Part shown: positions 3,310 through 64,000 of the stretch, piece by piece
How the letters are laid out: each line of letters begins with the position of its first letter
Position numbering within the stretch: the stretch's first letter is position 1
DNA from: Candidatus Saccharimonadota bacterium
GTDB taxonomy: Bacteria; Patescibacteriota; Saccharimonadia; Saccharimonadales; JAXHMH01
Reading direction: 5' to 3'
Length of the DNA stretch: 64,000 nucleotides
Assembly (NCBI GenBank): GCA_034521515.1
Contig: JAXHMH010000002.1
Coordinates: forward strand, 512,444-576,443
Program-made: the position numbers and the translations under genes
Notes under the pieces: model-generated
Seen by the model: the letters and a program-made list of their open reading frames with translations, nothing else
Told to the model about the DNA's origin: nothing
Database searches by the model: none

Positions 3310-6300
3310 ATGAAGTGGTTGTGGCTACGGAGGGTAGCAGGTCAGGTCGGGGTGGTGGCGCTATTGCTCGGAATAGCGTTTTTTGCGGCCACACAATCAG
3401 CAGCTGACGGCGCCTGGATGGACGACGACTGGCAACACAGAAAGCTCATCACGATCGATGAGACAATGGTCTCTGGTGGGAGTGATTTAGCGAACTTTCC
3501 TATTTTGGTATCAGTTACCGACACGGACCTACGGAGTACCGATTTTGGCGGCGGGGTGGCAAATGTAGATGCCAACGACATTGTATTTACGCTCGATGAC
3601 GGCACAACACTGCTTGCGTATGAACTAGAGAGTTATAACGACCAAACTGGGGATTTGAATGCGTGGGTACGACTGCCATCCCTGTCTGCGACCATCGAGA
3701 CAGAATTGTACATCTACTACGGTAATGAGCTGGCAACGAACCAACAAGATCCGGACAATGTCTGGCCAGCCGATTATGTTATGGTGCAGCACCTTCAAGA
3801 GCAATCAGGATCTGGGAATTTTTTGGCAGATTCAACCAGCGTCGGGAACGACGGTATCCCTTTGGGTACGACACCAGCATTTAACTCCAGTTCCAGGATT
3901 AACGGAGGCTGGGGGTATGGTGGCAATAACCAGCAACGCATCGAAATAGCTGATAATACCAGTTTGCAGTTAGCGGATTCATTTACAGCAGAAGCATGGG
4001 CGCGGTTTACAAGTTGGACGACGCCAGACCATAACCCTGTTCTATGGAAAGGGTCGCAAATCGGGTGGGGAAATAATTATAACTTTAGAATCGCAGTTAG
4101 TAACGGAGCCCCTACTTGGGGGGTGACATGTAGTGCTGAGGGTTGGTTTGCTGGGGGTACGGTATCCTTGAATACCTGGAACCACTACGTTTTGACGTTT
4201 GACGGTACAACCGTCCGAGGTTTCTTAAATGGCACAGAAGTTGGTTCGACAACCGACTGTAGCGGACAATCGCTTAATACTATGGCGGGGAACCCGGTGC
4301 GTAGTGGTTTTGGGTACCGTAACAGTCCAACCCAGGAAACGCACATGGCGGGTGATGTTGATGAGCTACGGATAGCCAACCAAGCCCAGAGCTCAGCATG
4401 GATTCAGACTGGGTATAACAACATGAATGCCCCGGAGACGTACATTGGTTTTGGCCCCGAAGAAGACCGGGCGCCCGCCGTCCCCCAAACCCCCACTCTC
4501 CACGACTCAGGTGGCTCCACCCAACTGGCCTTTAACAACAGCCGTATAGATACTCAAACGCCTACCTTCCGTGTCTCAACTCCTGCAGATGACAACTACA
4601 ACCAAATCCAGTTAGAACTCAACACCGAATCTGACTTCTCTGGCACCAGCTACACCCAAACAACCACCGGTGCCTACATCACCAACGACCAATACAATAT
4701 CCCTGCCAATAGTCTTTCTCCAAGTCTCCCCACTACCGATAATGCAACCTACTACGTCCGTGTCCGAGCCTCCGCCGACGGAGGCACGACCTGGGGCAAC
4801 TGGTCTACAGACAACGCCTGCTGTGACCCATGGAGCTTTACCTACAGCAGTACAGAGGATGAGATGAGTTGGTTCCAGCAAACAGACGTCCAGTTTGACA
4901 CAAGCACGCTAGATGCTGCAGTTACGAATGATGGCGTGCTATTAGCGGCAAGCTCGTTTTCGGCAACTGGCGGGACCATTACTACCATTGGAGATAGCCG
5001 GTATCACGTTTTTACAAGCGATGGCAATTTGACGGTGACTGGGGATTCGTCAACAGGTGAGGTGCTAGTAGTCGGTGGTGGCGGTGGTGGCGCTGGCTCA
5101 GCAGGAAACGCTGGTCGTGGCGGTGGTGGCGCTGGTGGACTAGTCCATGATGAAAACTTTTCACTCAATAGCGGGAGTTATTCAGTTACCGTAGGCACCG
5201 GTGGAGCTGGCGGTGCAGCTTCTGGAGCAGACGGCAGCCAAGGGAGTAACTCATCATTTGATAGTCTTGTCGGAATAGGCGGCGGTGGCGGTGCTGGTTT
5301 GAATACCAACGGGGGAGCTGGTGGGTCTGGTGGTGGTGCCGGAGTGAACAATCTTACTCTGTCAGGTGGCGCTGCGCAGCAGCCAGGTTCAAGCTCCGGT
5401 GGATTTGGTAGTCAGGGCGGCACAGCGGATATATATGCGGTGGGTGCTGGTGGCGGCGGTGGCGGTGGTGCCGGTGCAGCAGGCGGTGCGGGCACGGCAA
5501 GTGCTGGCGGTTCGGGCGGTGCAGGCTTAGAGTTTTCTCAATTTTCTGCGGTTGGTGGATCACCTGCTGGATGGTTTGCTGGTGGTGGCGGCGCATCAGC
5601 TGGTACAACCGGGGGGCCGGGCGGTACTGGCGGTGGTGGTACAGGGTCAACTGATACCTCTTCAGCACAGAGTGGCGTAACAAGTACAGGTGGAGGTGGT
5701 GGCGGTTCGCAGGGTACCGGTGGCGGTGGCGGTGATGGTGGCTCTGGCGTCGTCATTGTTCGTTATGATGTATCGTTTGCTCCGACTGGCAGTGTTACTT
5801 CAGAACCAATCAATTATTCAAGCGTTCCAAGTGCTCTCACGTGGGACGAAATGGTCTGGGAGTCTGATGAGTCTAATGGGTCAATAGAAATGCGGTTGCT
5901 GTACTCAGATTCCGGTACATGTGATGCACTGGTTTCCGACACAGATCTAAGCGGAAACAGCACTGGTTTCACGACTTCGCCAGTCGACATAACGGGGCTT
6001 GATAGCAGTACGTATCAACAGCTTTGCCTCGAGGCTACGCTCACAGAAGACGGTGGATCGCCCGTGCTGCAAAGCTGGGGCATACGCTGGGAGAGGTTCT
6101 TGCCCGCCGTCCCCCAAACCCCCACTCTCCACGACTCAGGTGGCTCCACCCAACTGGCCTTTAACAACAGCCGTATAGATACTCAAACGCCTACCTTCCG
6201 TGTCTCAACTCCTGCAGATGACAACTACAACCAAATCCAGTTAGAACTCAACACCGAATCTGACTTCTCTGGCACCAGCTACACCCAAACAACCACCGGT

Positions 6301-9285
6301 GCCTACATCACCAACGACCAATACAATATCCCTGCCAATAGTCTTTCTCCAAGTCTCCCCACTACCGATAATGCAACCTACTACGTCCGTGTCCGAGCCT
6401 CCGCCGACGGAGGCACGACCTGGGGCAACTGGTCTACAGACAACGCCTGCTGTGACCCATGGAGCTTTACCTACAGCAGTACAGAGGATGAGATGAGTTG
6501 GTATCAAGCAGATGGAGCGCAATTTGCCACAAATGAGCTCACTGATACGGTTGTTGACGGTGATGATGTGGTGTTGGGCGCGGTCGGATCAGGGATTACT
6601 AACCCGACACAATTGACGACATATACGTCGACAACCAATCAGGCATCTGCAACAACCGCGAGTGTCTCGCCGGCCGGCAACGCCTTGATAGTTGTGCTGG
6701 TGGGCACCGGCAGTACTACAACACACACGCATAATGCCGTGACGAGCACCTTTGGCACAGTGGGCGGGTTTACGCAGCGCACCACACAACTCGGTACGAG
6801 CAATACCTTTTACAGGTATTCAATTTATACTGCTGTGACAACGGCAAGTCCAGGCTCTGGTACCATTACCGTTAATTACAGCGCTAATACCCCAAACCAA
6901 GTGCATTATGTATTGCAAGTGGCGGATGGTTTTGACACATCCGACCCGGTAATTCAGACGATTACAGCGACAACCGCAGCAACCACGCTGTCGATGGGCT
7001 TTCCTGCTACTCCGCAAACAAGCTCGCTCGTAATTGGCGGTATTGCCACGAGGCGAGGGACAGATATTGCAGGCACAAGTGGCTATACAACGTTTGCAAA
7101 TATTGATACCGGTGGGGGCACAAATGCCCGCGCGCAATCCCAATATCGTGTCGGTGACGCCGGAATAGGACTAAACTGGACAGGAGACGGGACCCTAGAA
7201 AATATGGTTGCTGGAGCGGTAGAGATACGTGCTGAAACAGCAGATGATGCAACGATTATGTCATCAGAAATCTTTTATGACTACGCACGGAGCCCGCAGA
7301 CTTGGGGTGAGGCGTCGTTTACGTCAAATGAAACAAATGGTGATATCAAATTACGCCTGTATCATAGTTTATCCACAGCCTGCGATACACAGATTCCGAA
7401 TGGAGATCTAGCAGGAAACACCGTTGGCTTTGACGCAACAGATGGATCAATTGACTTATCAGGGCTTAACACGACAACATATGACCAAATTTGTATACAG
7501 GCTACATTGTCAGATGTCGCAGGTACGCCATATTTACAGAGCTGGTCAGTTTCGTGGGAGACAGAACCCAACTTTGCGCCGAATGAACCGTGGGCTTTGG
7601 CTCAAACCAAGACCGATACCTCGCCTTTAGCGGTTGGTGATTGGACGAATGAAAGCTCAGTACGCTTTACAGCCAGTGCGACTGATTTTGATGCAACAGG
7701 TGACTTAGAGCTCTGTGTTGAAGCTCGCCCAATCGGTATCAGCTTCTTGGATGTGCAGAATGACTGTGGTGAACCCGTGGAGTACCAAGCTCCGATTTAC
7801 GAGTGTGACCCAACCGGGAATGCGCTATTTGAAAAGTATGATGGAGTAGCCGGCACAGACATTGCATCACTCTATGCAGCTCCGGCTTTCCCGAATAGTC
7901 CTAGTTCAAATCAAACGATAAGTGGCGGTTCGCTGGAGGGTCCAGTAAATATTGATGATACGTATGGTGGTCGTCTGTCGGCCTTGATTTGCCCACCACA
8001 AGATGGTGATTACACATTTTGGTTGTCGGCCGACGATAATGCTGAGCTGCGCATAAGTACAGATGTGAACCCGGCAAATGTCACAACTATAGCTTCCGTA
8101 CCTGGCTGGTCTGGCGTAGATGAGTGGATAATGTACCCTGAGCAGCAATCTGCACTCGTCACGCTTGAAGCAGACCAGTATTACTACATTGAAGCCAATT
8201 ACAATGAAGGAGCTGGTGGTGACCATGTTCAGATTGGGTGGACATTGCCCGACACGACAGTTGACCGACCGATTTCCGGTACGTACTATTCATTGCCTTC
8301 CGAAGAAGAAGAGCGAACGCTCATTTCTGGCGAGATTCCAACATTAACCGCAGCGCTTAACCTGGCGGATGCGGATAGCTATCATTGGCAAGCTCGGGTG
8401 CGTGACCAAGGCGGCCTCTACTCGAGCTGGGTAAACTTTGGTAGTAACCCAGAAGAGGAGCGTGACTTTGGGATAGACACAACTGCACCAACTAGTGGGA
8501 GTGTATACGATGGCGATGACCTTGGAGAGGACATGATGTTTAATGATGGGTCACTAGATACACTGTCGGCGAACTGGGAAGGCTTTGACTTTGATGTATC
8601 AGGAACGGTTGGCTATGAATATTCAATCGGTACAACGCCGGGTGGTACAGACACAGTTGATTGGACGGATGTCGGTACGGATACCTCGTTTACTATCAGC
8701 AGTCTAGAGCTCCAGACAAACCACGTTTACTACACGAACATTCGGGCTACAGATGTTGCTGGCAATACAGCGGTAGTGAGTTCCGATGGTCAATATGTTT
8801 TACCGACGCTGAGTTTTAGTGTATCGACTTCAAACATTACATTTGAGAATCTTGGTGCCAGTAATGACCGCACAGATTCTGAGGATGTCACGCTTACGAC
8901 CTCCACGAATGCCTACGCTGGCTATACGGTTCGGGCTCGAGCAACAGGGCAACTCAACGCAAATGGGTCGCATGATCTTCCATGGTTTAGCGCAGGGTCG
9001 TATGCTTCTCCGGTTGCCTGGGAGGATAGCAGTACCTGGGGGTACGGCTACACCTCAAGCGATACCAATGTGCAAGGTTCCAATAAGTTTGGCGATGGAA
9101 CATTGTTTGCTCCATTTACCACGCTTGCGCCTGGCGATATTGTGGCTGATAACACCGACAACACAACTGGTGTATCTATACAGGACGAGGAGTTTACAAT
9201 CACGCACCGGGTGGTTGCCCCAGAAGACCAGCCAGCTGGTTTCTACTCCACGACAATTTATTACACAGTGACAGCCGATTACTAA
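3310..9285 (+). CDS. Giant secreted multi-domain surface protein (DUF2341-like, LamG-like, Gly-rich, PA14-like and WxL-like C-terminal modules)
   Basis: Uninterrupted ORF; the track starts at TTG 3274, and ATG 3310 gives MKWLWL plus a TM/signal segment. N-terminal WQHRKLITID...LYIYYGN resembles DUF2341, and WNHYVLTFDG...DVDELRIAN resembles LamG. There is a long GGxGG region. GDYTFWLSADDNAELRIS...YYYIEANYNEGAGGDHVQIGW resembles PA14. The C-terminus is homologous to that of ORF 10393..11412. Confidence 0.85.
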   Translation: MKWLWLRRVAGQVGVVALLLGIAFFAATQSAADGAWMDDDWQHRKLITIDETMVSGGSDLANFPILVSVTDTDLRSTDFGGGVANVDANDIVFTLDDGTTLLAYELESYNDQTGDLNAWVRLPSLSATIETELYIYYGNELATNQQDPDNVWPADYVMVQHLQEQSGSGNFLADSTSVGNDGIPLGTTPAFNSSSRINGGWGYGGNNQQRIEIADNTSLQLADSFTAEAWARFTSWTTPDHNPVLWKGSQIGWGNNYNFRIAVSNGAPTWGVTCSAEGWFAGGTVSLNTWNHYVLTFDGTTVRGFLNGTEVGSTTDCSGQSLNTMAGNPVRSGFGYRNSPTQETHMAGDVDELRIANQAQSSAWIQTGYNNMNAPETYIGFGPEEDRAPAVPQTPTLHDSGGSTQLAFNNSRIDTQTPTFRVSTPADDNYNQIQLELNTESDFSGTSYTQTTTGAYITNDQYNIPANSLSPSLPTTDNATYYVRVRASADGGTTWGNWSTDNACCDPWSFTYSSTEDEMSWFQQTDVQFDTSTLDAAVTNDGVLLAASSFSATGGTITTIGDSRYHVFTSDGNLTVTGDSSTGEVLVVGGGGGGAGSAGNAGRGGGGAGGLVHDENFSLNSGSYSVTVGTGGAGGAASGADGSQGSNSSFDSLVGIGGGGGAGLNTNGGAGGSGGGAGVNNLTLSGGAAQQPGSSSGGFGSQGGTADIYAVGAGGGGGGGAGAAGGAGTASAGGSGGAGLEFSQFSAVGGSPAGWFAGGGGASAGTTGGPGGTGGGGTGSTDTSSAQSGVTSTGGGGGGSQGTGGGGGDGGSGVVIVRYDVSFAPTGSVTSEPINYSSVPSALTWDEMVWESDESNGSIEMRLLYSDSGTCDALVSDTDLSGNSTGFTTSPVDITGLDSSTYQQLCLEATLTEDGGSPVLQSWGIRWERFLPAVPQTPTLHDSGGSTQLAFNNSRIDTQTPTFRVSTPADDNYNQIQLELNTESDFSGTSYTQTTTGAYITNDQYNIPANSLSPSLPTTDNATYYVRVRASADGGTTWGNWSTDNACCDPWSFTYSSTEDEMSWYQADGAQFATNELTDTVVDGDDVVLGAVGSGITNPTQLTTYTSTTNQASATTASVSPAGNALIVVLVGTGSTTTHTHNAVTSTFGTVGGFTQRTTQLGTSNTFYRYSIYTAVTTASPGSGTITVNYSANTPNQVHYVLQVADGFDTSDPVIQTITATTAATTLSMGFPATPQTSSLVIGGIATRRGTDIAGTSGYTTFANIDTGGGTNARAQSQYRVGDAGIGLNWTGDGTLENMVAGAVEIRAETADDATIMSSEIFYDYARSPQTWGEASFTSNETNGDIKLRLYHSLSTACDTQIPNGDLAGNTVGFDATDGSIDLSGLNTTTYDQICIQATLSDVAGTPYLQSWSVSWETEPNFAPNEPWALAQTKTDTSPLAVGDWTNESSVRFTASATDFDATGDLELCVEARPIGISFLDVQNDCGEPVEYQAPIYECDPTGNALFEKYDGVAGTDIASLYAAPAFPNSPSSNQTISGGSLEGPVNIDDTYGGRLSALICPPQDGDYTFWLSADDNAELRISTDVNPANVTTIASVPGWSGVDEWIMYPEQQSALVTLEADQYYYIEANYNEGAGGDHVQIGWTLPDTTVDRPISGTYYSLPSEEEERTLISGEIPTLTAALNLADADSYHWQARVRDQGGLYSSWVNFGSNPEEERDFGIDTTAPTSGSVYDGDDLGEDMMFNDGSLDTLSANWEGFDFDVSGTVGYEYSIGTTPGGTDTVDWTDVGTDTSFTISSLELQTNHVYYTNIRATDVAGNTAVVSSDGQYVLPTLSFSVSTSNITFENLGASNDRTDSEDVTLTTSTNAYAGYTVRARATGQLNANGSHDLPWFSAGSYASPVAWEDSSTWGYGYTSSDTNVQGSNKFGDGTLFAPFTTLAPGDIVADNTDNTTGVSIQDEEFTITHRVVAPEDQPAGFYSTTIYYTVTADY
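4473..4873 (+). repeat. Copy 1 of a 401-bp perfect direct repeat inside the giant CDS
   Basis: Base-for-base identical to 6102..6502 by my reading. Offset is 1629 bp (543 codons, in frame). Encodes APAVPQTPTLHDSGG...STEDEMSW. Confidence 0.9.
6102..6502 (+). repeat. Copy 2 of the 401-bp perfect direct repeat inside the giant CDS
   Basis: Identical to 4473..4873. The domains flanking each copy are homologous but diverged. Confidence 0.9.
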
Positions 9286-9294
9286 CCGAGGCGT

Positions 9295-10269
9295 ATGATT
9301 GTTGTTATGAACTTTTTCTCGCATCAACCCCGTGTACTTTTTAGGATTGCGTTGTTTTGTGTGGTTATGTTGAGCGCTGTTATGTATGTATGCAGTCAGC
9401 CAAGATTAATATTTGCACAAGTAGGCGATAACATGGAAGTTTCAGGATCGGGGCTTTCTGTTAGCCCAGCATTGATTGAGTTAACGCTTGATCCGGGCGA
9501 GTCACGAGATAAAGAGTTCTATGTTAATAATATTACTAAAACCCCTGTGCCACTGAACATCGGCACCCAGCCGTTGTATCCCAACGAACAAATTATTGAC
9601 GACACCAAGACCGATAGTTTTGATGCCGCTCAGTGGGTCAGCGTTGATGAGCCCGACAATATTTTAAATGCAGGTGAGCAGCGTCAACTGACTGCAAAGA
9701 TTTCTGTACCTGAGTCTGCAGAACCAGGCGGACATTATGCGACGATTGTGCTTGAGCCGCTCGTGCCAGCAACCGAAATGTCTAGTGGGGCAAGTATCGC
9801 TTCTCGGGTAGGGATACTGGTGTTTATTACCGTTTCTGGTGATGCCATATATGATGTCGAACTGCAAGAGCCTAGTGTAGGTAGATTGCAGTGGTCACGT
9901 CATGTGCCGATCACGGCGGAGTTTCTAAACCAAGGTACGATTCACATTTCTCCTACAACACGGGTGACAGTGAAAAATATTTTTGGTGACACGCTTGGGG
10001 AAGTACCCGTGCAGCCTCGTGTGGTGTTGCCAAATACACAAAAAATATTGCGTGCTCAGTGGAGAAGTCCATCGCTGATAGGTATATACTCTGCACAAAT
10101 CGAAGCCAGTTACGGGGAGGATGGAACGGTACTAGAAAGTGGGCAACGGTATTTTTTGGTAGTGCAATGGTTGCCAGTTTTAGGGATCGTCATTTTAGCG
10201 AGTATTCTTGGCTGGCTTATAAAAGTACGCCAACGATTACCAGCCGCTTGTAAGGCTTTTAGAGGGTGA
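9295..10269 (+). CDS. Membrane-anchored cell-surface protein, DUF916/DUF3324-like (CscA-like) architecture
   Basis: N-terminal signal/TM segment. Beta-rich body LSVSPALIELTLDPGESRDKEFYVNN with motif SAEPGGHYATIVLEP. Single C-terminal TM followed by KVRQR. Paralog of 11492..12427. Confidence 0.55.
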   Translation: MIVVMNFFSHQPRVLFRIALFCVVMLSAVMYVCSQPRLIFAQVGDNMEVSGSGLSVSPALIELTLDPGESRDKEFYVNNITKTPVPLNIGTQPLYPNEQIIDDTKTDSFDAAQWVSVDEPDNILNAGEQRQLTAKISVPESAEPGGHYATIVLEPLVPATEMSSGASIASRVGILVFITVSGDAIYDVELQEPSVGRLQWSRHVPITAEFLNQGTIHISPTTRVTVKNIFGDTLGEVPVQPRVVLPNTQKILRAQWRSPSLIGIYSAQIEASYGEDGTVLESGQRYFLVVQWLPVLGIVILASILGWLIKVRQRLPAACKAFRG

Positions 10270-10392
10270 GCGCAGTAAATTTTACAGTGCCAAAAAAGGT
10301 TGCGCTTATGAAGGAGACATCTTATGCTAGTAGGGACTGCGCATTGCGCGATGAGATTGGCCATAGAAAATAAGAACCGTGGGGGTTTTACA

Positions 10393-13974: not shown

Positions 13975-14155
13975 CGGGGTGTGGCCCCGCCTGTCTGGCC
14001 GAGCCCCCTGTCTTTCTGGCAAGAAGGCCAGGCAGGACGGACAGGGCAGTTGGCTAGCGTGAGAAGTGCCAGTGGCACTTCGCAAGGGAATCCACTCTTG
14101 CAAACTTGTTTGCTAAGATGTGGTGACGGGGTCGCAGAATGTGACCGCGGTTTGG
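13975..14155 (+). pseudogene. Interrupted 5'-half copy of tRNA-Pro
   Basis: cggggtgtggc, gcagttggctagcg and cgcggtttgg match tRNA-Pro positions 1 to about 36, in order. They are separated by inserts of 60 nt (13986..14045) and 86 nt (14060..14145). There is no matching 3' half. Confidence 0.75.
13986..14045 (+). repeat. 60-nt hairpin insertion element, copy A
   Basis: About 90 percent identical to 28161..28220 by my reading. Removing it restores a contiguous tRNA-Pro sequence (gtggc|gcag). Confidence 0.8.
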
Positions 14156-14205: not shown

Positions 14206-14282
14206 CGGGGTGTGGCGCAGTTGGCTAGCGCGCGCGGTTTGGGACCGTGAGGTCGAAGGTTCGAGTCCTTTCACCCCGACCA
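14206..14282 (+). tRNA. tRNA-Pro (anticodon TGG), CCA encoded
   Basis: Manual cloverleaf: acceptor CGGGGTG/CACCCCG, anticodon loop TTTGGGA, T arm GAAGG-TTCGAGT-CCTTT, 77 nt. Confidence 0.9.
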
Positions 14283-14384
14283 ATAAAAAAAGGTTACCTT
14301 GTGTAGCCTTTTTTTATTGGTTAGAGTCAACGGCTCGGTTCTTCGACACAGATTTGCACCAGCAAATATGCAAGTCGAAGGTTC
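14268..14384 (+). repeat. 117-bp direct repeat, copy 1 (tRNA-Pro 3' end, bidirectional terminator and hairpin)
   Basis: Matches 14633..14749 with one mismatch. Contains the 14-nt inverted repeat ccaataaaaaaagg...cctttttttattgg. Confidence 0.85.
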
Positions 14385-14476
14385 GGTGTAGCGCAGCGTA
14401 GGCGAGAAAGCGCTTTAGCATTTTCTCGGCAAGCAAGCGGAAAAGGACGTAGTCCGCTGTCCTTTCACCCCGACCA
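14374..14476 (+). pseudogene. tRNA-Pro T-arm/acceptor fragment split by a 74-nt insert
   Basis: gtcgaaggttcg, then an insert (14386..14459), then tcctttcaccccgacca. The break falls right after TTCG of the T loop. Confidence 0.7.
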
Positions 14477-14564
14477 TGAAAAAGGAGTCTCTTCATTGAG
14501 ACTCTTTTTTCATGCTTGGCTGAAAAGATTTGGTTCTTCGACTCGACAGCTTCAGCTGGCGATA

Positions 14565-14647
14565 GTCGAATGGTTCGGTCGTTAGTCACAGACCCCAGCG
14601 TTAGCGGGCGTCTGGATTAACGTGCGTTGTCTCTTTCACCCCGACCA
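14565..14647 (+). pseudogene. Second, diverged tRNA-Pro T-arm/acceptor fragment split by a 54-nt insert
   Basis: gtcgaatggttcg, then an insert (14578..14631), then tctttcaccccgacca. Confidence 0.65.
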
Positions 14648-14749
14648 ATAAAAAAAGGTTACCTTGTGTAGCCTTTTTTTATTGGTTAGAGTCAACGGCT
14701 CGGTTCTTCGACGCAGATTTGCACCAGCAAATATGCAAGTCGAAGGTTC
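14633..14749 (+). repeat. 117-bp direct repeat, copy 2
   Basis: See 14268..14384. Offset is 365 bp. Confidence 0.85.
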
Positions 14750-14837
14750 AAGCCTGCCCCGCACCAGAATTGGCGCGCGGGTTCTTTCACTGAGCTTAAC
14801 TTAGCCTTTAGTTATAGCGCTTGCTACAATAAGGCGT

Positions 14838-19015: not shown

Positions 19016-19390
19016 GCGGGTGTCGTATAATGGCTAATATACCTGCCTTCCAAGCAGGCGATGCGAGTTCGCCCCGGTCATACGACGGGGCGCCCTATCG
19101 GATGATAGGGCGATTCTCAAGAAGCAACAATTAACAATCTACGGGTGTCGTATAATGGCTAATATACCTGCCTTCCAAGCAGGCGATGCGAGTTCGCCCC
19201 GGTCATACGACGGGGCGCCCTATCGGATGATAGGGCGATTCTCAAGAAGCAACAATTAACAATCTACGGGTGTCGTATAATGGCTAATATACCTGCCTTC
19301 CAAGCAGGCGATGCGAGTTCGCCCCGGTCATACGACGGGGCGCCCTATCGGATGATAGGGCGATTCTCAAGAAGCAACAATTAACAATCT
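19016..19390 (+). repeat. Three tandem 125-bp units, each a truncated tRNA-Gly copy with a 41-nt T-loop insert
   Basis: Units start at 19016, 19141 and 19266 and are identical except for the first base. Each holds tRNA-Gly nt 1-56, a two-hairpin insert, attctc, and a 22-nt spacer. Confidence 0.9.
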
Positions 19391-19465
19391 GCGGGTGTCG
19401 TATAATGGCTAATATACCTGCCTTCCAAGCAGGCGATGCGAGTTCGATTCTCGCCACCCGCACCA
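19391..19465 (+). tRNA. tRNA-Gly (anticodon TCC), CCA encoded
   Basis: Acceptor GCGGGTG/CACCCGC, anticodon loop CTTCCAA, T arm GCGAG-TTCGATT-CTCGC, 75 nt. Confidence 0.9.
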
Positions 19466-28087: not shown

Positions 28088-28229
28088 GGTTCGGCGTATG
28101 TGAGTCCGCTGGTCAGCGGACGAACGAAGAAGCCCATCTTTGATGGGCGCTATCCTGCCGCCCGCCTATCTGACCGAGTCTCCTGTCTTTCTGACAAGAA
28201 GGCCAGGCAGGACGGACAGGGGTGTACCA
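28088..28229 (+). pseudogene. tRNA-Arg 3' fragment split by two inserts
   Basis: ggttcg, a 58-nt insert (28094..28151), atcctgccg, a 60-nt insert (28161..28220), then ggtgtacca. Removing the inserts gives the T-loop-to-CCA sequence of the upstream tRNA-Arg. Confidence 0.75.
28161..28220 (+). repeat. 60-nt hairpin insertion element, copy B
   Basis: Homologous to 13986..14045. Excision restores cctgccg|ggtgtacca exactly. Confidence 0.8.
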
Positions 28230-45756: not shown

Positions 45757-46575
45757 ATCCTAGTTTATGGGTGTGAGGAACTAATCCCGTAACCGGACAT
45801 TTAAAGAAGGTGGAGATAGAGCGGCAACAGAGGTAGTTTATACGTCTCAGGGCTGCTTTTTTACACTTTTTGAGGAGTTCGGGAGTCCATAACCTATGGG
45901 TTCATTTACAAGTCAGATCATTACAGTCTATAATCCTGCAATTCATGCCGTAACAGACTGCTTCTGAACAAAGTTCAGAACACCTCTGTTACTCTTTGGA
46001 CGCTACGGCGTTGCTGGACTGTGGTGCGTCCTCATCGTACGTTTGTACGATTCCGGTCGCTCCTCGTCCGCGCCTTGTATCGCCCTAAAGCATGAAATGC
46101 AGGAAACTCCGGGATGTCAATATGTTGACATCTGGAGTGTTCCGTAAGGAGAGGCGCACTATCATGAGTGCGGGCCGTCTAATACTAGCCGCCAGGGGTC
46201 GTACCCTGTTGCTAGCAGTTGGCGGTCCGTGCTCATTGGTGTTGAAGCTAGTAGGTTGAGTAACTTCGGTTGCTCCCAGTAAGCTCCGCCTTACCTGACA
46301 CGGAACAGTGACTACAGTAAACCCTAAAAACAACACAGATTAAGACCTTTTTGCTTTTGAGCACAGCACTTTGTTTGTCGACCTCGACAATCAGGGTGCT
46401 GTGTTCAAACCCCAAGAGGGGGTATGAGCAACAAGTCGATGGCGACATCGACCTTGCTTGCTCATACGAGCGTCAAAGGAAGATTTAGCTGTCGACTTGT
46501 TGTGGGCAATCCCACAGCCTGGTGAGGCCATAGGCCAATCTAGCTCCTACCCCCTCATATCGAGGAAGGAGAGTC
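45757..46575 (+). ncRNA. Candidate long structured leader or unclassified ncRNA (about 0.8 kb, ORF-free)
   Basis: No plus-strand ORF of 60 aa or more. Many stems of 6-18 bp, for example ctccgggatgtcaa/ttgacatctggag, gtatgagcaa..ttgctcatac and gagcacagcac/gtgctgtgttc. Long-range complement gttccgt/acggaac. Confidence 0.3.
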
Positions 46576-48896: not shown

Positions 48897-49151
48897 ATGT
48901 ATTTCTATACGTATGTTTTAAGAAGTAAAAAAGATGGGAAACTCTACACGGGCGTTACTCGCCAGTTACAGAAGCGCCTATCTGAGCACAATTCTGGACT
49001 TACTCGATCCACAAAGGGTCGCGGTCCATTTGAACTAATATACTTCGAAGGCTGCATGATAGAGGAAGCGGCGTTCATCCGTGAGAAACAGTTAAAGTCT
49101 GGACACGGAAAAAGATATCTGAAAAACAGACTAGGAGCTTCTTATTTCTGA
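48897..49151 (+). CDS. Small GIY-YIG nuclease-family protein
   Basis: MYFYTYVLRSKKDGKLYTGVTRQLQKRLSEHNSG. TGCTAAAAT lies 6 nt upstream of the ATG. Confidence 0.8.
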   Translation: MYFYTYVLRSKKDGKLYTGVTRQLQKRLSEHNSGLTRSTKGRGPFELIYFEGCMIEEAAFIREKQLKSGHGKRYLKNRLGASYF

Positions 49152-50836: not shown

Positions 50837-51270
50837 AACTAAACCATGTGCCGCGTGAGCGGCCTGCTTTCTGGGCTAGTCCGGAAACACCGCCCTCACG
50901 CTCTTGGCGCAGTACTTTGTCAGAAGCTCCAGTACTCGAGCACCGTATGTATATACGGTTTACTCCGTGCTTCGCTTCTTCCGTGTACTGCATCCAAGTA
51001 CAAGCTTTAGTTTCCAGACTTATTTGCTCAGGTAGGATGCGCAGTGCATTCCTCCTGCCTGCAACGTAGCAAATCCTGGGGTGAGGTAGTCTGCAATCAG
51101 ATTATGGAGCCTCAAGATTTGCTATCGTTGTGGATAAACACTAGCGATATTGTCAAAAATATGCTAGTCTTGCATTGAAGATTAGGAGCACGACTGACCG
51201 CTCAAAACGAACTCTCAATAAAGCACCCCGGCCTAAAAACCGGGGTATTTTATTTCCACCCCACCCCTTT

Positions 51271-51307
51271 TGCAAGGTTAGACCTTGCAACAAGGTCTAA
51301 CCTTGCA
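51271..51307. repeat. REP-like hairpin flanking the transposase gene (left)
   Basis: tgcaaggttagaccttg caa caaggtctaaccttgca: 17-bp stem, 3-nt loop. Confidence 0.8.
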
Positions 51308-51337: not shown

Positions 51338-51967
51338 TTAAGTATCTGCCAGGATTCCTTTTAGGAGCTTCAAATCCTTACGTTGTGCCTTGTACTCACT
51401 TACGAATTTCCTATAGTCTTTGGTGCTGTTGTCGTGAAGTTCCATGATCTTGTCCGGCCTAAGCCATTCTGCCGTACGTGTCTTCATATAGTACGGAAAA
51501 CTGGAATAGTCATAGGTTTCGTAGTCGACATTGATGTCTTGAGGATTCAGGTGTATGTACCGGCTAATATGTAATAAATAGTCATCCTTATCTATAAGAC
51601 TTGCTTTGTAGGTGCCCTGGAATAAGCTGCCAACTCGCTTGTGGCGCTTATTGAAATACATGCTATAAGCTGTCATTAGTCGGTGCATGAGTTCTGGCAG
51701 GCCTTTATCTTCCTGATTGTAGACAAGGAGATGGAAGTGATTTGGCATCAGGCAGAAAGCCAATAACTCCACTTTGTTTAACAGATGTGCAAAATCTCTG
51801 CCATACTTATCTTGAAGTGGTTCGTTAGACAGGTGGCGCTTAAAAAGGTGTAAAAAATAAAAGTAGTCATCTGAGTCTAGAAAAACGTCAGATTTATTTA
51901 CACCACGATTATAAACGTGGTAGTAGTTATCGCTAGCTAACTGTTTTACTACATGACGACTCGGCAT
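51338..51967 (-). CDS. IS200/RAYT-type Y1 (HUH) transposase
   Basis: YYHVYNRGVNK, the HUH motif PNHFHLLV and SRYIHLNP. ATG 51967 preferred; the track start at 52021 runs through the REP hairpin. Confidence 0.8.
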   Translation of the reverse strand: MPSRHVVKQLASDNYYHVYNRGVNKSDVFLDSDDYFYFLHLFKRHLSNEPLQDKYGRDFAHLLNKVELLAFCLMPNHFHLLVYNQEDKGLPELMHRLMTAYSMYFNKRHKRVGSLFQGTYKASLIDKDDYLLHISRYIHLNPQDINVDYETYDYSSFPYYMKTRTAEWLRPDKIMELHDNSTKDYRKFVSEYKAQRKDLKLLKGILADT

Positions 51968-51971
51968 AATA

Positions 51972-52006
51972 ACAAGGTCTAACCTTGCAACAAGGTTAGA
52001 CCTTGT
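51972..52006. repeat. REP-like hairpin flanking the transposase gene (right)
   Basis: acaaggtctaaccttg caa caaggttagaccttgt: the same arms as the left copy, in swapped order. Confidence 0.8.
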
Positions 52007-52851: not shown

Positions 52852-53107
52852 TTTAGATTATTAAGCCTATGGTATTCTCTGTAAGTTTTTGCTTTATCTC
52901 TGGAGCATAAGCGGTTAATATAATAAGTATGACAAGTAAATCTTTTGCACTTGGATGTAGAGTGGTATTTCTCCGTGAGAAACGGAGCGAGGCGTATATG
53001 TCATACGGTGACGTGAGTATCGCAGCGGAAAATGTCGCTCTACGCCAAGAACCTTTACAGCGCAGCTGGCTGTGCCAGCTGGCAGGGAAAGGTGATGCAA
53101 AGATCTG

Positions 53108-54544
53108 ATGAAAACAACCTTTAAAGTGCCAAACGTTCCGCTGGCAAAATTCAAGCGGACAAAGATTATAGCTACGGTTGGTCCAGCCACCAACAGTTAC
53201 GAGGCTATTTATGAGCTTATTACAGCTGGCGCTAATGGTATTAGGCTTAACTTTAGTCACGGCACGCACGAAGAACGCGAAAAGCAGATCAAGTGGATAC
53301 GCAAAGCTGCCGCGAAATACGGCAAGCCAATAGCCATTATCCAAGATTTACAGGGCCCCAAAGTGCGTCTTGGCGACTTTGAAGGTATTGTGAATGTCGC
53401 CGAGAGCCAGAGCTTTAGCTTTAAATACAAGGCAGACTACGACGAGTCCGGTGTGCTGCCAACTCAGTACGACTTAAGCAAAAAGGTTAAGCGAGGCGAA
53501 CGGCTTTATTTATATGACGGCAAGATCCGCATGACCATAACCAGCGTGCGTGATGGTGTCGTGCATGCTCGTGCTGAAAACGACGGCATTTTGATCAAAA
53601 GAAAAGGCATCAACCTGCCAGACACTGATTTTGGCGGCGATATTCTTACCAAGAAAGACCGGCAAGACATTGTTTTTGGATCGACAAACGACATAGATTA
53701 TGTGGCGCTGAGCTTTGTGCAACATGCAGGTGATATCAAAAAACTCCGTACTTTACTGCGCGGGCTGGGTAGCTCGGCGCGTATTATAGCCAAGATTGAA
53801 ACCAAAGCTGCAGTAGATAATCTGGAGCCAATAGTCAAAGAAGCTGATGCGGTCATGGTGGCGCGCGGCGACTTAGCAATCGAAACACTGGCTGAGTCGG
53901 TTCCAATTGTGCAACGCCAAATCATTGGACTGGGCGCGCAATATTCCACACCCACTATAGTCGCGACGCAAATGCTAGCGACCATGACTGAATTACCTGA
54001 ACCAACCAGGGCAGAAGTATCGGATGTAGCGACAGCGGTTATTGTATCGACAGATGCAGTTATGTTGAGTGACGAAACCGCCAATGGCCAGTACCCGATA
54101 CAGTCAGTCAAAGTCATGAAGCGAGTAATTCTTCATACCCAAGAGAATATGCCGCTCAAAGTAACTTTTCCAGAACATGAAGAGAATCGTTCGCAAACAG
54201 CTGCGATCTCAAAAGCTATTATTAAACTTGCTAATACGCTAGAAGCCAAAGCGATTGTGGCAGAAACAAAATCTGGCGCAACAGCACTGCAAATTAGCGC
54301 TCGACGTCCGGATCAACCAATTATTGCCGCCACACCTGACATTAGGGTGGCACAGCAGCTGGCAGTTGTGTATGGGATTAAAAGTTATGTACGGCCGGAT
54401 GATCCACGACAGGCCACCAAGCTAACAAACTGGCTGCACCAAAACAAAGTATTGAGCAAGGGTGATATGGTTATTACGGTTTCTGGCAAGCACCCTGGTG
54501 TGGTCGGGTCGACGGACACCATTAAAGTACGTGTTTTAGAATAA
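53108..54544 (+). CDS. pyk: Pyruvate kinase
   Basis: RTKIIATVGPA, NFSHG, MVARGDLAIE and TQMLATM. Confidence 0.95.
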   Translation: MKTTFKVPNVPLAKFKRTKIIATVGPATNSYEAIYELITAGANGIRLNFSHGTHEEREKQIKWIRKAAAKYGKPIAIIQDLQGPKVRLGDFEGIVNVAESQSFSFKYKADYDESGVLPTQYDLSKKVKRGERLYLYDGKIRMTITSVRDGVVHARAENDGILIKRKGINLPDTDFGGDILTKKDRQDIVFGSTNDIDYVALSFVQHAGDIKKLRTLLRGLGSSARIIAKIETKAAVDNLEPIVKEADAVMVARGDLAIETLAESVPIVQRQIIGLGAQYSTPTIVATQMLATMTELPEPTRAEVSDVATAVIVSTDAVMLSDETANGQYPIQSVKVMKRVILHTQENMPLKVTFPEHEENRSQTAAISKAIIKLANTLEAKAIVAETKSGATALQISARRPDQPIIAATPDIRVAQQLAVVYGIKSYVRPDDPRQATKLTNWLHQNKVLSKGDMVITVSGKHPGVVGSTDTIKVRVLE

Positions 54545-54545
54545 T

Positions 54546-54716
54546 CTACGGGTTTCGCAGCAAATCAGTGACTACTGGCCGAGCCAGTAGCTCCCCGATT
54601 TTCTTGGCATCCAGCGCGCGTTTTGCACGAAATACTCATTCGCCGTAGCATAAACTACGACTCACTCCGTTTTCCTGCAAGAACGCACACTGGCTACTCA
54701 AGTGCGAAACCCGTAG
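54546..54716. repeat. 171-nt element bounded by 14-bp perfect inverted repeats in the pyk-pgk spacer
   Basis: ctacgggtttcgca (54546..54559) pairs with tgcgaaacccgtag (54703..54716), with inner hairpins. The right arm can alternatively pair with cgggttt (54724..54730) to form a terminator. Confidence 0.7.
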
Positions 54717-57581: not shown

Positions 57582-59912
57582 GTGATGTCGGAGGATGTTT
57601 TACGCGGGTTAAACGACGAGCAGCGGCGGGCGGTCGAGACGACCGAGGGGCCGTTGCTTATTTTAGCGGGTGCTGGTTCTGGCAAAACCAAGACTTTAAC
57701 GCACCGCATTGCCTATATAATTGCCCAACATAAGGCCACACCTTATAACATATTGGCGGTTACGTTTACCAACAAAGCTGCCCGTGAAATGCGCGAGAGG
57801 GTTTGGAACTTGATGCAAAGCAGCAACTCTTGGGGCATCCAGGCGGATGGAGTGCAAGGCGCTAGCGATGCGCAGACTGAGCCGTACAGAAAGTACGGTG
57901 AAGGAGCACAGCAGGTAGCAACGCAACAATCCGCCGCCAACAACACCAGTGCAGATGGCTCTGCTAGCTGGCAGGGTGGCGTGATGGATGTGCCAAGAGG
58001 GTTTATGCCTTTTATGGGCACTTTCCACGGTATCTGCGTCAGGTTGCTGCGGCAAGATGGCGAGCACGGCGGAGTGCCAAAAAACTTCGTTATTTTTGAC
58101 GAGTCTGACCGATTAACAGCCATAAAGCAGGCTTGCAAACAACTGATGATTGATGAAAAAGCCTTTCCACCTCGAACCTTATCCGGCTTGATTAGTAGCG
58201 CCAAAAACGAACTAATATCTGCCGCTGAATATTCATCTACAGGCAGCGGCCCAATGCACAAAACAGCTGCCCAGGTTTTCCCGATCTATGAACGCATACT
58301 CAAACAAGCTGGTGCACTAGATTTTGACGATCTTATCGCCCAGACGGTAAAGCTGCTCAAAAACAACGAGCAAATTCGCCATAAGTGGCAGCAGCAATTT
58401 CGTTATGTAATGATTGATGAGTACCAAGACACCAACTCGGCGCAGTACAAGCTAATTAAGCTACTGACAAACGAACAAACAAACATTGCGGTTGTAGGCG
58501 ATGATTGGCAATCGATTTATTCATGGAGAGGGGCTGATTTTCGCAATATCCTCAATTTCGAAAATGACTATCCAGACACCGCGGTGATTAAGCTGGAACA
58601 AAATTATCGCAGTACTAAGGCGATTTTGGACGCAGCACACGCAGTTATATCCAAAAATAAACAGCGTTCAAGTAAAGAATTGTGGACTGATGCAGGCGCC
58701 GGGCAGCCAGTGCAGGTCATTCAAGTTCATAATGAGCGAGCCGAAGGTGAGGCGATAATCCGGCGGGTTCAAAATGCGGTTGACGCACGCTTTAGACAAT
58801 ATAAAGACTTTGCAGTGCTGTACCGCACAAATGCCCAAAGCCGCGCGATTGAAGAAATGTTCGTGCGTTACGGTATCCCGTATAGGATTATTGGCGGGCA
58901 ACGGTTCTATGACCGTAAAGAAATCAAGGATATATTGGCGTACCTGCGTTTGATATATCAGCCAGAAGATCGTGTCAGTTTTGCGCGTATTGTTAACGTG
59001 CCAACTCGAGGCATAGGCACTAAATCGTTAGAAAAATTTTATAACTGGCAGATTGAGCGCAACCTTACTTTGCAACAGGCGCTTGATACAGTCGGGGAGT
59101 ACGATGGTATCACGGGTAAAGCCCGTAAAGGCTTGGTTGAGCTTGGCGACCTACTTACAAAAATGCGTGAACTTGTGAACGATGTGCCCTTAACCGGGCT
59201 GCTTGATTCGTTGATTCGCCGGATTGACTACATGGCCTATCTTGACGATAAGACACTACAAGGTGAATCACGGCAAGAAAACGTCAAGGAACTGCTGAGC
59301 GTTGCCGAAGAGTATCAGGAGCTAGGACTGGACGGATTTTTGGAAGAAGTGTCTCTGGTGAGCGGTCTTGATTCAGCAGATTTTGACAACAATTCCGTGA
59401 CACTCATGACCATGCATGCCGCAAAAGGTCTGGAGTTTCCGGTGGTGTTTTTGGCTGGCCTGGAGGAAACTATTTTTCCGCACTCCCGCGCACTGTATGA
59501 TCAACACGAAATGGAAGAGGAACGTCGGTTGTGTTACGTAGGTATGACCCGCGCTAAAGAAGAGTTGATACTTAGCTACGCCTCATCGCGCATGTTATAC
59601 GGTGGTGTGCAGCATAATCCGCCGTCTCGATTTTTGAGCGAGATAGATGGCAAACTGCAAACCGATACCTCAGGTAAATGGACGCCCACATCACATTCGG
59701 CCGAGCCGTTTGTAGCCCCTGGTGCGCCTAAACCAACCGGTGATAGCGAACCACGATATGTACCTGATTTAAATGAAGGTGATAGTGTCAGGCATCAGGT
59801 ATTTGGTGTTGGCACAGTTATGGAAGTAGACGGAGATAATGTTGCAATCTATTTCAAAGGCAAAGGCGCCAAAAAACTCAACAGCAGTTTCGCCCCACTC
59901 GAAAAACTGTAA
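57582..59912 (+). CDS. pcrA: ATP-dependent DNA helicase PcrA/UvrD with a lineage-specific insertion
   Basis: AGAGSGKT, TFTNKAAREM, DEYQDTN, VGDDWQSIY, QNYRST and MTMHAAKGLEF. About 55 extra residues lie between REMRERV and GTFHG. Confidence 0.95.
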   Translation: MMSEDVLRGLNDEQRRAVETTEGPLLILAGAGSGKTKTLTHRIAYIIAQHKATPYNILAVTFTNKAAREMRERVWNLMQSSNSWGIQADGVQGASDAQTEPYRKYGEGAQQVATQQSAANNTSADGSASWQGGVMDVPRGFMPFMGTFHGICVRLLRQDGEHGGVPKNFVIFDESDRLTAIKQACKQLMIDEKAFPPRTLSGLISSAKNELISAAEYSSTGSGPMHKTAAQVFPIYERILKQAGALDFDDLIAQTVKLLKNNEQIRHKWQQQFRYVMIDEYQDTNSAQYKLIKLLTNEQTNIAVVGDDWQSIYSWRGADFRNILNFENDYPDTAVIKLEQNYRSTKAILDAAHAVISKNKQRSSKELWTDAGAGQPVQVIQVHNERAEGEAIIRRVQNAVDARFRQYKDFAVLYRTNAQSRAIEEMFVRYGIPYRIIGGQRFYDRKEIKDILAYLRLIYQPEDRVSFARIVNVPTRGIGTKSLEKFYNWQIERNLTLQQALDTVGEYDGITGKARKGLVELGDLLTKMRELVNDVPLTGLLDSLIRRIDYMAYLDDKTLQGESRQENVKELLSVAEEYQELGLDGFLEEVSLVSGLDSADFDNNSVTLMTMHAAKGLEFPVVFLAGLEETIFPHSRALYDQHEMEEERRLCYVGMTRAKEELILSYASSRMLYGGVQHNPPSRFLSEIDGKLQTDTSGKWTPTSHSAEPFVAPGAPKPTGDSEPRYVPDLNEGDSVRHQVFGVGTVMEVDGDNVAIYFKGKGAKKLNSSFAPLEKL

Positions 59913-63724: not shown

Positions 63725-63754
63725 TTGACATAAGCATAAGTTTGGTGCTATAAT
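63725..63754 (+). promoter_or_regulatory. Promoter (TTGACA, 18-nt spacer, TGcTATAAT)
   Basis: Consensus -35 and an extended -10, reading toward the end of the window. Confidence 0.6.
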
Positions 63755-63759
63755 ACCCT

Positions 63760-64000
63760 TTACCGTCACCAGACGGGAAGGCTCTAGAAAGCCATTAAAA
63801 ACGCACTTTCATTCATCTACCGAAAATTCACAAGGGTGCATAATGCACGGAAGAAGTGAGCAACGGACTGAGCCGTATAAACAATACGGTGAAGGAGTAG
63901 CGGAACTTCTGACACAGCAGTATGCGGCCAGCTGTTAATGAATTATGGATTCATTCCATTATGCTTAACAGCGGTTGTGTGTTTTCGGGGGCTGAATTTA
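63760..64000 (+). ncRNA. Candidate structured 5' leader, truncated by the window end
   Basis: No ORF. Several hairpins, including the motif actgagccgtataaacaatacggtgaaggag, which is shared with the pcrA insertion. Confidence 0.25.

Follow-up and report, generated by a model that had tools for sequence, protein, structure and literature searches.

We analyzed a 64,000-nt stretch of the genome of a Candidatus Saccharimonadota bacterium (contig JAXHMH010000002.1, positions 512,444 to 576,443; hereafter "the window"), in which the UvrD-family helicase gene pcrA carries an in-frame insertion and the last bases begin a transfer-messenger RNA (tmRNA) gene. An earlier reading of the letters alone (the "sequence-only reading") had noticed that a 31-nt hairpin within the insertion recurs in an intergenic leader near 63.87 kb, and had taken this to indicate a mobile or RNA-level element rather than a feature of the protein. 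Our analysis shows that the motif is indeed structured and shared, but that the 31-nt hairpin is only the tip of a three-helix element of about 170 nt. The window holds six copies of this element, five of them non-coding (45.9, 50.9, 52.9, 54.6, and 63.8 kb) and one in frame in pcrA, and all six are confined to its last 18 kb (Table 1), where a gene for a transposase resembling the REP-associated tyrosine transposases (RAYT) also lies.

Six copies of a three-helix repeat

The two 31-mers agree at 27 of 31 bases, as had been reported, with the first at 57876-57906 and the second at 63867-63897 (the sequence-only reading had placed the latter one base too early, at 63866..63896). Two of the four differences form a compensatory stem pair, C-G in one copy and T-A in the other. 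The pattern ACTGAGCCGTA-N7-TACGGTGAAGGAG has exactly two matches in the window and none in 100 dinucleotide-preserving shuffles. Both copies also share a reading frame, a point that had been missed: it reads TEPYRKYGEG in pcrA and TEPYKQYGEG in a 31-codon open reading frame (ORF) at 63843-63938. The loose continuation of the match ("cacagcag") claimed after a 15-nt gap turned out to be non-homologous, as a structure-guided alignment is collinear over 99 positions and gapless there.

A repeat search of the window returned two further similar pieces, at 50.95 kb (minus strand) and 53.06 kb, both of which belong to additional copies built in the same way. These brought the number of copies to four, among which compensatory double changes occur at 12 of the 24 predicted pairs of the long arm, P2. 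We built a covariance model of the P2 arm (R1). Run unfiltered, R1 finds six copies in the window, at 34.5-103.1 bits, and nothing else below E = 0.05; this is four more than the original pair, and dozens more came to light in related genomes and metagenomes. The fold z-scores of the non-coding window copies range from -5.6 to -6.7 relative to shuffled sequence. Rfam returned only tRNAs and noise, both for the whole window at gathering thresholds and for 63.65-64.0 and 50.7-53.2 kb at E up to 10.

Table 1. Copies of the element and associated features in the window
Feature	Position	Strand	P2 arm	Evidence and context
Copy A	63820-63988	+	63831-63929	R1 103.1 bits; fold z-score -6.7; tmRNA precursor 5' leader
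Copy A apical hairpin	63873-63889	+		CCGTAT-AAACA-ATACGG
Copy B	50879-51019	-	50903-51000	Non-coding; R1 97 bits; fold; frame analysis
Copy C	52940-53104	+	52950-53049	R1 83.9 bits; fold; directly 5' of pyruvate kinase (ATG 53108)
Copy D	57827-57999	+	57840-57938	Complete P1-P2-P3, in frame in pcrA; R1 100.7 bits; minimum-free-energy fold
Copy D apical hairpin	57882-57898	+		CCGTAC-AGAAA-GTACGG
Copy E	45935-46103	-	45994-46090	Non-coding; R1 50.8 bits, E = 1e-12; P1/P2/P3 fold
Copy F	54546-54716	-	54605-54702	pyk-pgk spacer; R1 34.5 bits, E = 8e-8
pcrA (UvrD-family helicase)	57582-59912	+		776 codons; copy D separates motif Ia (TFTNKAAREMRERV) from the GTFHG motif
RAYT-like HUH Y1 transposase gene	51338-51967	-		209 aa; YHVYNRG, HFHLLV, and YIHLNP motifs
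33-nt perfect double palindrome	51273-51305			CAAGGTTAGACCTTG-CAA-CAAGGTCTAACCTTG; downstream of the RAYT-like gene
Partner 33-nt double palindrome	51973-52005			Upstream of the RAYT-like gene; REPtron-like arrangement
Sigma-70-type promoter	63725-63754	+		12/12 consensus matches, TG extension; copy A begins ~65 nt downstream
tmRNA gene, 5' end	63988-64000	+		Truncated by the window end; runs to about 64386 on Logan contig L001

Copy D encodes about 57 residues (NSWGIQ...VMDVPRG). Copy E is located in a 950-nt spacer after a histidine kinase gene, while copy F is antisense to both pyk and pgk, with its 3' end 2-4 nt from the pyk stop codon, and has a very stable P1/P2/P3 fold (-99 kcal/mol for the sense strand versus -70 for the antisense). 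The apical loop of copy B is short by one base, and the peptide frame is shifted as a result. A 59-codon ATG ORF (52929-53108) spans copy C in the canonical frame, and its TGA shares bases with the start codon of pyruvate kinase; this ORF may be spurious or a translated upstream ORF. We rejected, as a general explanation, that the short ORFs across copies A and C are real genes, because the canonical frame is closed in the majority of spacer copies.

The copy that had been assigned to an intergenic leader does lie in a leader, and extension past the window end identifies it as the 5' leader of the tmRNA gene. Logan contig L001 is identical to the window end (its position 995 corresponds to window 63276) and extends 389 nt beyond it. 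On this contig, Rfam RF00023 matches at 1707-2105, i.e., from window 63988 onwards (88.2 bits, E = 2.3e-34), while ARAGORN did not call a tmRNA there. The 3' strand of copy A's closing stem ends at the first base of the tmRNA, and the upstream promoter is most likely that of ssrA. With the tmRNA mapped from 63988, copy A thus fills the gap between the promoter and the mature tmRNA 5' end; it would be co-transcribed with the ssrA leader and removed when RNase P matures the tmRNA.

Anatomy and covariation of the fold

The element spans about 165-175 nt, in which a closing stem (P1) encloses two structures, the long irregular arm P2 and P3, a hairpin in two parts. This layout is common to all copies with the exception of copy B, from which a canonical P3 is absent. 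P1 comprises 9-27 pairs and forms in every copy, with a sequence that is unrelated from one copy to the next (CCGAAAATTCACAA/TTGTGTGTTTTCGG in copy A, GTCTGGAAAC/GTTTCCGGAC in copy B, and CTCTTGG.GCATCCA/TGGATGTGCCAAGAG in copy D). P2 is about 99 nt long and consists of five helical segments ending in the tip CCGTAY-loop-RTACGG; its internal loops are conserved in sequence (CGGAnUGAG and GUGAAGGAGUA), with tandem G-A/A-G beside a G-U. P3 takes up about 45 nt, with the consensus GCATCAGCGGAG..CCGGCTCnGCCGG..AGCAGGCTGATGC. The similarity between copies is mosaic: copies A and D have a near-identical P2 tip and unrelated P1 and P3, and copies C and D are alike in P3 (80% over 40 nt). This patchwork suggests that copies have exchanged segments.

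The paired positions covary. For P2, we compared 43 copies from the window and its relatives (an earlier set of 19 copies was also tested) and found standard pairs in 94.4% of pair cells, versus 20-44% when the partners are slid by 1-3 columns, although the alignments were fitted to R1 and the pairing percentages are somewhat inflated by this. Both sides have changed at 20 of the 24 pairs (267 cells), and the observed score was reached by none of 500 shuffles. The stem pair singled out by the sequence-only reading is U-A in 22 of these copies and C-G in 19. For P3, a plain MAFFT alignment of 16 copies shows at least one compensatory change at each of the 15 predicted pairs. The fold is also conserved within a single coding site. 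Orthologues of the window's pcrA insert in two relatives (L083 and L084) retain all three helices, and MAFFT with RNAalifold on the inserts of the three species recovers all three as well, with 27 of 64 pairs compensated; the double changes include pairs of P1 and alter amino acids on both sides.

The fold favors one strand. The mean fold energy is -79 kcal/mol for the sense strand versus -66 kcal/mol for its complement, the sense strand is the more stable in 18 of 19 copies, and P2 contains 40 G-U/U-G cells versus 11 A-C/C-A cells.

Host genes, relatives, and other repeats of the window

The extra residues that the sequence-only reading saw in PcrA are borne out by alignment with Geobacillus PcrA, in which query residues 80-143 replace residues 82-87, and these ~55 residues correspond to an in-frame copy of the structured repeat. 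The window PcrA is identical to a protein encoded on a 706-kb contig of a Candidatus Saccharibacteria metagenome-assembled genome. Among PcrA orthologues, the insert at this position (site 1) is present in some (P0002, P0013, P0038, P0108), divergent in others (P0071, P0116, P0118), and absent from most; the majority of Saccharibacteria orthologues (about 715-725 aa) have GENPDN alone there. One protein without a site-1 insert (P0106, from locus L082) carries a homologous 55-residue insert (165 nt) at a second pcrA site, between DEYQDTN...LLSNPN and NIAVVGDDWQ, and in the same frame (EQGAGEKRTETYIEYDEGASEPATQRSA). With R1, the pcrA inserts of relatives reach 82-89 bits at the nucleotide level. 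A further copy at locus L082 occupies the pyk-pgk spacer, in the position and orientation of copy F. Among the 20 other Saccharibacteria or candidate phyla radiation (CPR) loci listed, few of them from close relatives, only one has a copy, so the element appears to be limited to a sub-lineage of Saccharibacteria. In viral contigs, two pattern matches were found, both due to chance, and no full-length model match exceeded 18 bits.

Between orthologues, the insert peptides are 32-45% identical, compared to 67-72% for the whole PcrA proteins. An AlphaFold2 model of PcrA, whose quality (mean pLDDT 55) does not allow the insert to be placed, leaves it unstructured at pLDDT 24-29, a hint that it may be a tolerated loop. 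Several other PcrA homologues of ~1100 residues (P0031, P0047, P0050, P0058, P0068) contain intein or Hint domains, so that pcrA would host two kinds of selfish insertion in Saccharibacteria.

The coding copies are found in many other genes. A word-indexed protein search with the insert peptides gave two matches only, and an exhaustive profile search was needed: a profile of six inserts, run against 1.84 billion representative proteins, gave 216 matches at E <= 0.001. Most of these are 50-70 residues long and represent ORFs called across spacer copies; longer proteins account for ~30 of the 150 best-scoring matches listed. The hosts assigned by Pfam are FolD, PrmC (three clusters), Dus, a DNA methyltransferase, an RluA-type pseudouridine synthase, an MMR_HSR1 GTPase, malic enzyme, a Y-family polymerase, MsrA, PilM, and an AHSA1 protein. 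The insert in FolD falls exactly between its two domains, and the methyltransferase (P0151) is encoded on the window's source contig, outside the window. DNA was fetched for five of the hosts, and in each of them R1 recovers the fold at the nucleotide level, with scores of 75-92 bits. Several seeming fusions at the N-terminus of pilin-like proteins probably reflect leaders that gene callers have read through.

We also scanned metagenomes for the nucleotide pattern, with no requirement for an open frame, and obtained true copies in 27 of the 80 loci listed. Among 26 full-length copies, six lie inside long ORFs (DnaG, family-4 uracil-DNA glycosylase, RarA/MgsA, cysteinyl-tRNA synthetase, glutamate dehydrogenase, and a glycosyltransferase), two at an N-terminus or in a 5' leader (GltX and a HAD phosphatase), and 18 are non-coding. 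Taken together with the protein matches, there are independent in-frame insertions in at least 17 host gene families. One 20-kb metagenome fragment (L089) has four copies (7088-7190, 9358-9457, 14705-14804, and 10232-10330), of which spacers hold three and a GTPase gene the fourth; a large serine recombinase gene is present at 997-2616.

Coding and non-coding copies differ in the state of the frame. The canonical frame, which gives a hydrophilic peptide of ~56 residues (...VQGAGEQRTEsY..YGEGa...ATQqsA...), is stop-free in all coding copies examined, and the other two sense frames usually have stops. By contrast, 8 of 10 non-coding copies are interrupted by stops or thrown out of frame by a loop length altered by one base: a frameshift is seen in copies B and E, stops are seen in copies A and F and most other spacer copies, and the fold is kept in all. 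No split gene halves flank the non-coding copies (0 of 25). The element is not a gene, and a frame that is open only where the host gene needs it argues that coding copies are translated rather than excised. What is conserved is the nucleotide fold, in which P2 and P3 covary, rather than the protein; together with the additional copies and the independent insertions, this supports the view of the sequence-only reading that the element is a mobile or RNA-level one.

Several other repeats were observed in the window. At 19017-19446, 3.4 exact tandem copies of a 125-nt unit, made up of the 5' two-thirds of tRNA-Gly(tcc) and a spacer, end in an intact tRNA-Gly (19391-19465); the array could be a trace of repeated integration or slippage at this tRNA gene. 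A 300-nt exact direct repeat (4473-4772 and 6102-6401, 1.6 kb apart) lies within or beside genes rich in GGTGGTGGC (glycine-rich) repeats, with 5074-5747 also in this region. A 117-nt segment that takes in the tRNA-Pro 3' end together with a terminator-like hairpin occurs twice, with 99% identity (14268-14384 and 14633-14749), and with a third, partial copy at 14459-14509. A GC-rich 61-nt repeat, 92% identical between copies, is found near tRNA-Pro (13986-14046) and tRNA-Arg (28161-28221); of the two, only the first folds into a stable hairpin (-46 kcal/mol for the 86-nt segment 13975-14060, z = -2.6). Finally, 48897-49151 is a stand-alone ORF of 84 residues for a GIY-YIG nuclease domain (Pfam, 61 bits).

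Mobility, rival explanations, and known systems

We interpret these observations, with a probability of roughly 70%, as a structured repeat of a Saccharibacteria lineage that has been inserted many times independently into spacers and genes, that has one translatable frame, and that is or was mobile. A copy landing in a gene, in the open frame and within a tolerant loop, would be translated as a hydrophilic peptide of ~56 residues; the pcrA insert would be such a copy, and the one at 63.87 kb a non-coding counterpart. The element would act as a single strand whose fold is recognized in trans. In fixed copies, the fold may persist through selection on an RNA or single-stranded DNA (ssDNA) function, through hairpin-templated correction of one arm (a process established for quasi-palindromes), or through both.

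The preferred candidate for the mobilizing enzyme is an HUH Y1 transposase of the RAYT-like kind encoded at 51338-51967, which would move the element as ssDNA; the link is circumstantial, and we regard it as doubtful. The protein matches Pfam Y1_Tnp at 45 bits, and its best NCBIfam match is REP_Tyr_transpos, which at 46.5 bits falls short of its cut-off of 80. Syntenic homologues of the gene are widespread in Saccharibacteria/CPR. Copy B is 270 nt downstream of it, and in one related locus (L212) the sole copy in 20 kb is ~210 nt downstream of the RAYT homologue, in the opposite orientation. A strand-specific fold would also go with an HUH Y1 enzyme acting on hairpins of single strands. The palindromes flanking the gene are conserved around the L212 homologue and differ in another locus, L213, which has two Y1 genes. 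RAYT-like homologues are often found on ~1 kb contigs, as if bounded by assembly-breaking repeats. The element shares with the flanking palindromes only a CAAGG pentamer, which we take as chance.

A number of points weigh against mobility or against this enzyme. The RAYT-like gene is flanked by palindromes of its own that differ from the element, no copy is found within the 20.6 kb examined around the L213 homologue, and tblastn found no RAYT homologue on the other element-bearing fragments. We saw no near-identical pairs of copies and thus no sign of recent movement, and close strains showed no presence/absence polymorphism. When filled pcrA sites 1 and 2 were compared with empty ones, no clear target-site duplication emerged, a possible CCRAAY (Pro-Asn) repeat at site 2 being equally explicable as host sequence, and the copies have no conserved terminal sequence. 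P1 differs in every copy, unlike the terminal inverted repeats bound by transposases, and the fold is retained at fixed orthologous sites, where the decay expected of a purely selfish relic is not seen. To these are added the inflation of the P2 pairing percentages mentioned above, a possible contribution of strand-biased deamination to the excess of G-U over A-C, and the fact that translation of the coding copies is deduced from their open frames.

A more ambitious version of the mobile-repeat interpretation is that we are dealing with a new class of mobile structured nucleic-acid module, its fold under purifying selection in essential genes and leaders of the ultra-small Saccharibacteria, and either moved as a single strand by a conserved, domesticated RAYT-like HUH enzyme or endowed with an RNA function of its own; we put this forward tentatively, as the less probable outcome.

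The most serious alternative is that the element is primarily a structured RNA module of use to the host (for protein binding, processing, or stability) under purifying selection, with mobility only in its distant origin. The compensatory changes that keep P1, P2, and P3 in the pcrA inserts of three species are in line with this view, as are the conserved unpaired nucleotides of the P2 internal loops, the favored sense strand, the presence of several copies in 5' leaders (tmRNA, pyk, gltX, a HAD gene, and pilin-like genes), and copy F, which has drifted far (34.5 bits) and yet folds stably. Such a module, however, would have to serve host genes and contexts with no common theme, including many spacer copies that are antisense to both neighbors and have no evident promoter of their own. 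It matches no Rfam family, and related Saccharibacteria do without the element at the same sites, most PcrA orthologues being insert-free. We consider this explanation unlikely.

That coding copies are excised like introns or bypassed by the ribosome, with P1 joining the flanks, is far less probable still. P1 does bring the two ends together by pairing in every copy and, on the 3' side, coincides in part with host codons that are conserved (R-G at pcrA site 1, P-N-I at site 2, and FRIL in MsrA), and the fold is conserved inside coding sequence. Excision or bypass does not account for the single stop-free frame that each internal coding copy examined keeps and that non-coding copies do not; this frame is open across diverged pcrA orthologues, including the divergent subfamily P0071, P0116, and P0118. 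Moreover, the pcrA site-2 insert, the sole one measured exactly, amounts to 55 codons (165 nt), there are no split genes around non-coding copies, and no intron or ribozyme family is matched. A selected short peptide or insertion domain with an incidental hairpin is the least credible of all: the motif EQRTEsY..YGEG...ATQ.SA recurs in the 216 protein clusters and both 31-mer copies of the window share its frame, but most spacer copies lose that frame and keep the fold, paired positions co-change through non-synonymous substitutions, the peptide is far less conserved than the proteins around it, and it is modeled as unstructured (in a model that is weak overall).

The mobile-repeat interpretation places the element closest to the Rickettsia palindromic elements (RPEs), which, in the account given in PMC10969869, are repeats of ~150 bp with one conserved translated frame, found in frame in many unrelated genes (Ogata et al. 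2000, 2002). Both families consist of repeats of ~100-170 bp with stable predicted hairpin-like folds; both occur in intergenic regions and in frame within many unrelated housekeeping genes, with one translated frame and a conserved peptide; both live in reduced genomes of bacteria dependent on other cells; and in neither has a mobilizing enzyme been assigned. The likeness is one of described behavior; the host of the present element belongs to a different phylum (Patescibacteria/Saccharibacteria), and the element itself differs in being a three-helix junction with a copy-specific P1, conserved internal loops, and strong covariation that extends to orthologous coding copies. As a dispersed family of ~170-nt folded repeats with in-frame insertions in unrelated genes, the element is RPE-like in its behavior.

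Other known systems fit less well. Miniature inverted-repeat transposable elements, or MITEs, with intragenic or co-transcribed copies include Correia/CREE of Neisseria, ERIC, BOX, RUP, and QMITE of Coxiella (PMC10969869, PMC5896051). Like the element, they are small, non-autonomous, and multi-copy, have pairing ends, sometimes form in-frame fusions, and often lie in leaders or beside stop codons; their terminal inverted repeats, however, are conserved and match a parent insertion sequence, usually with target-site duplications, whereas the terminal stem of the element differs in every copy, and we do not assign it to this class. No parent insertion sequence sharing its ends was found in the window, the sole transposase-like gene (51338-51967) having different 33-nt palindromes. 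Repetitive extragenic palindromes (REPs) are 20-40 nt long with a conserved GTAG or CGTC tag (PMC3733652). The RAYT-like gene with inverted flanking palindromes among the copies, and spacer copies that abut stop codons, recall REPs and the bacterial interspersed mosaic elements built from them, but at ~170 nt, with three helices, copies inside genes, and no conserved end tag, the element does not belong there in size, tag, or location. Long inverted repeats are embedded and translated in mitochondrial genes of Nematomorpha (PMC6649704); these share translation within genes and differ in being perfect two-armed repeats that do not form a dispersed family with non-coding copies.

Two further classes were rejected. 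A cis-regulatory leader or riboswitch does not agree with copies that lie in coding regions, in leaders, and in spacers antisense to both neighbors, and has no Rfam match. A self-splicing intron or intein has no Rfam match either and is at odds with the frame being open in all coding copies; the inteins of other PcrA homologues are elsewhere in the protein and far larger.

A full-text literature search on palindromic, MITE, or in-frame repeats in Saccharibacteria, Patescibacteria, CPR, or TM7 found no description of the element. What is new, then, is a family of RPE-like protein-coding structured repeats in Saccharibacteria, a behavior known mainly from Rickettsia. In-frame translated palindromic repeats have so far been treated as a peculiarity of that genus, and their origin, spread, and effects on proteins lack an explanation. 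The element offers several handles on these questions, among them a defined covarying three-helix fold, conserved loops that resemble binding sites, two insertion sites in one gene, and an adjacent candidate single-strand transposase. It also accounts for odd extra segments of ~56 residues in many Saccharibacteria proteins and for many spurious "hypothetical proteins" of 50-70 residues in metagenome catalogues. Saccharibacteria have reduced genomes and a host-dependent lifestyle. The same behavior in an unrelated reduced-genome lineage suggests that it is more general; genome reduction or dependence on a host would then produce it repeatedly, and Saccharibacteria would provide a second system for comparison.

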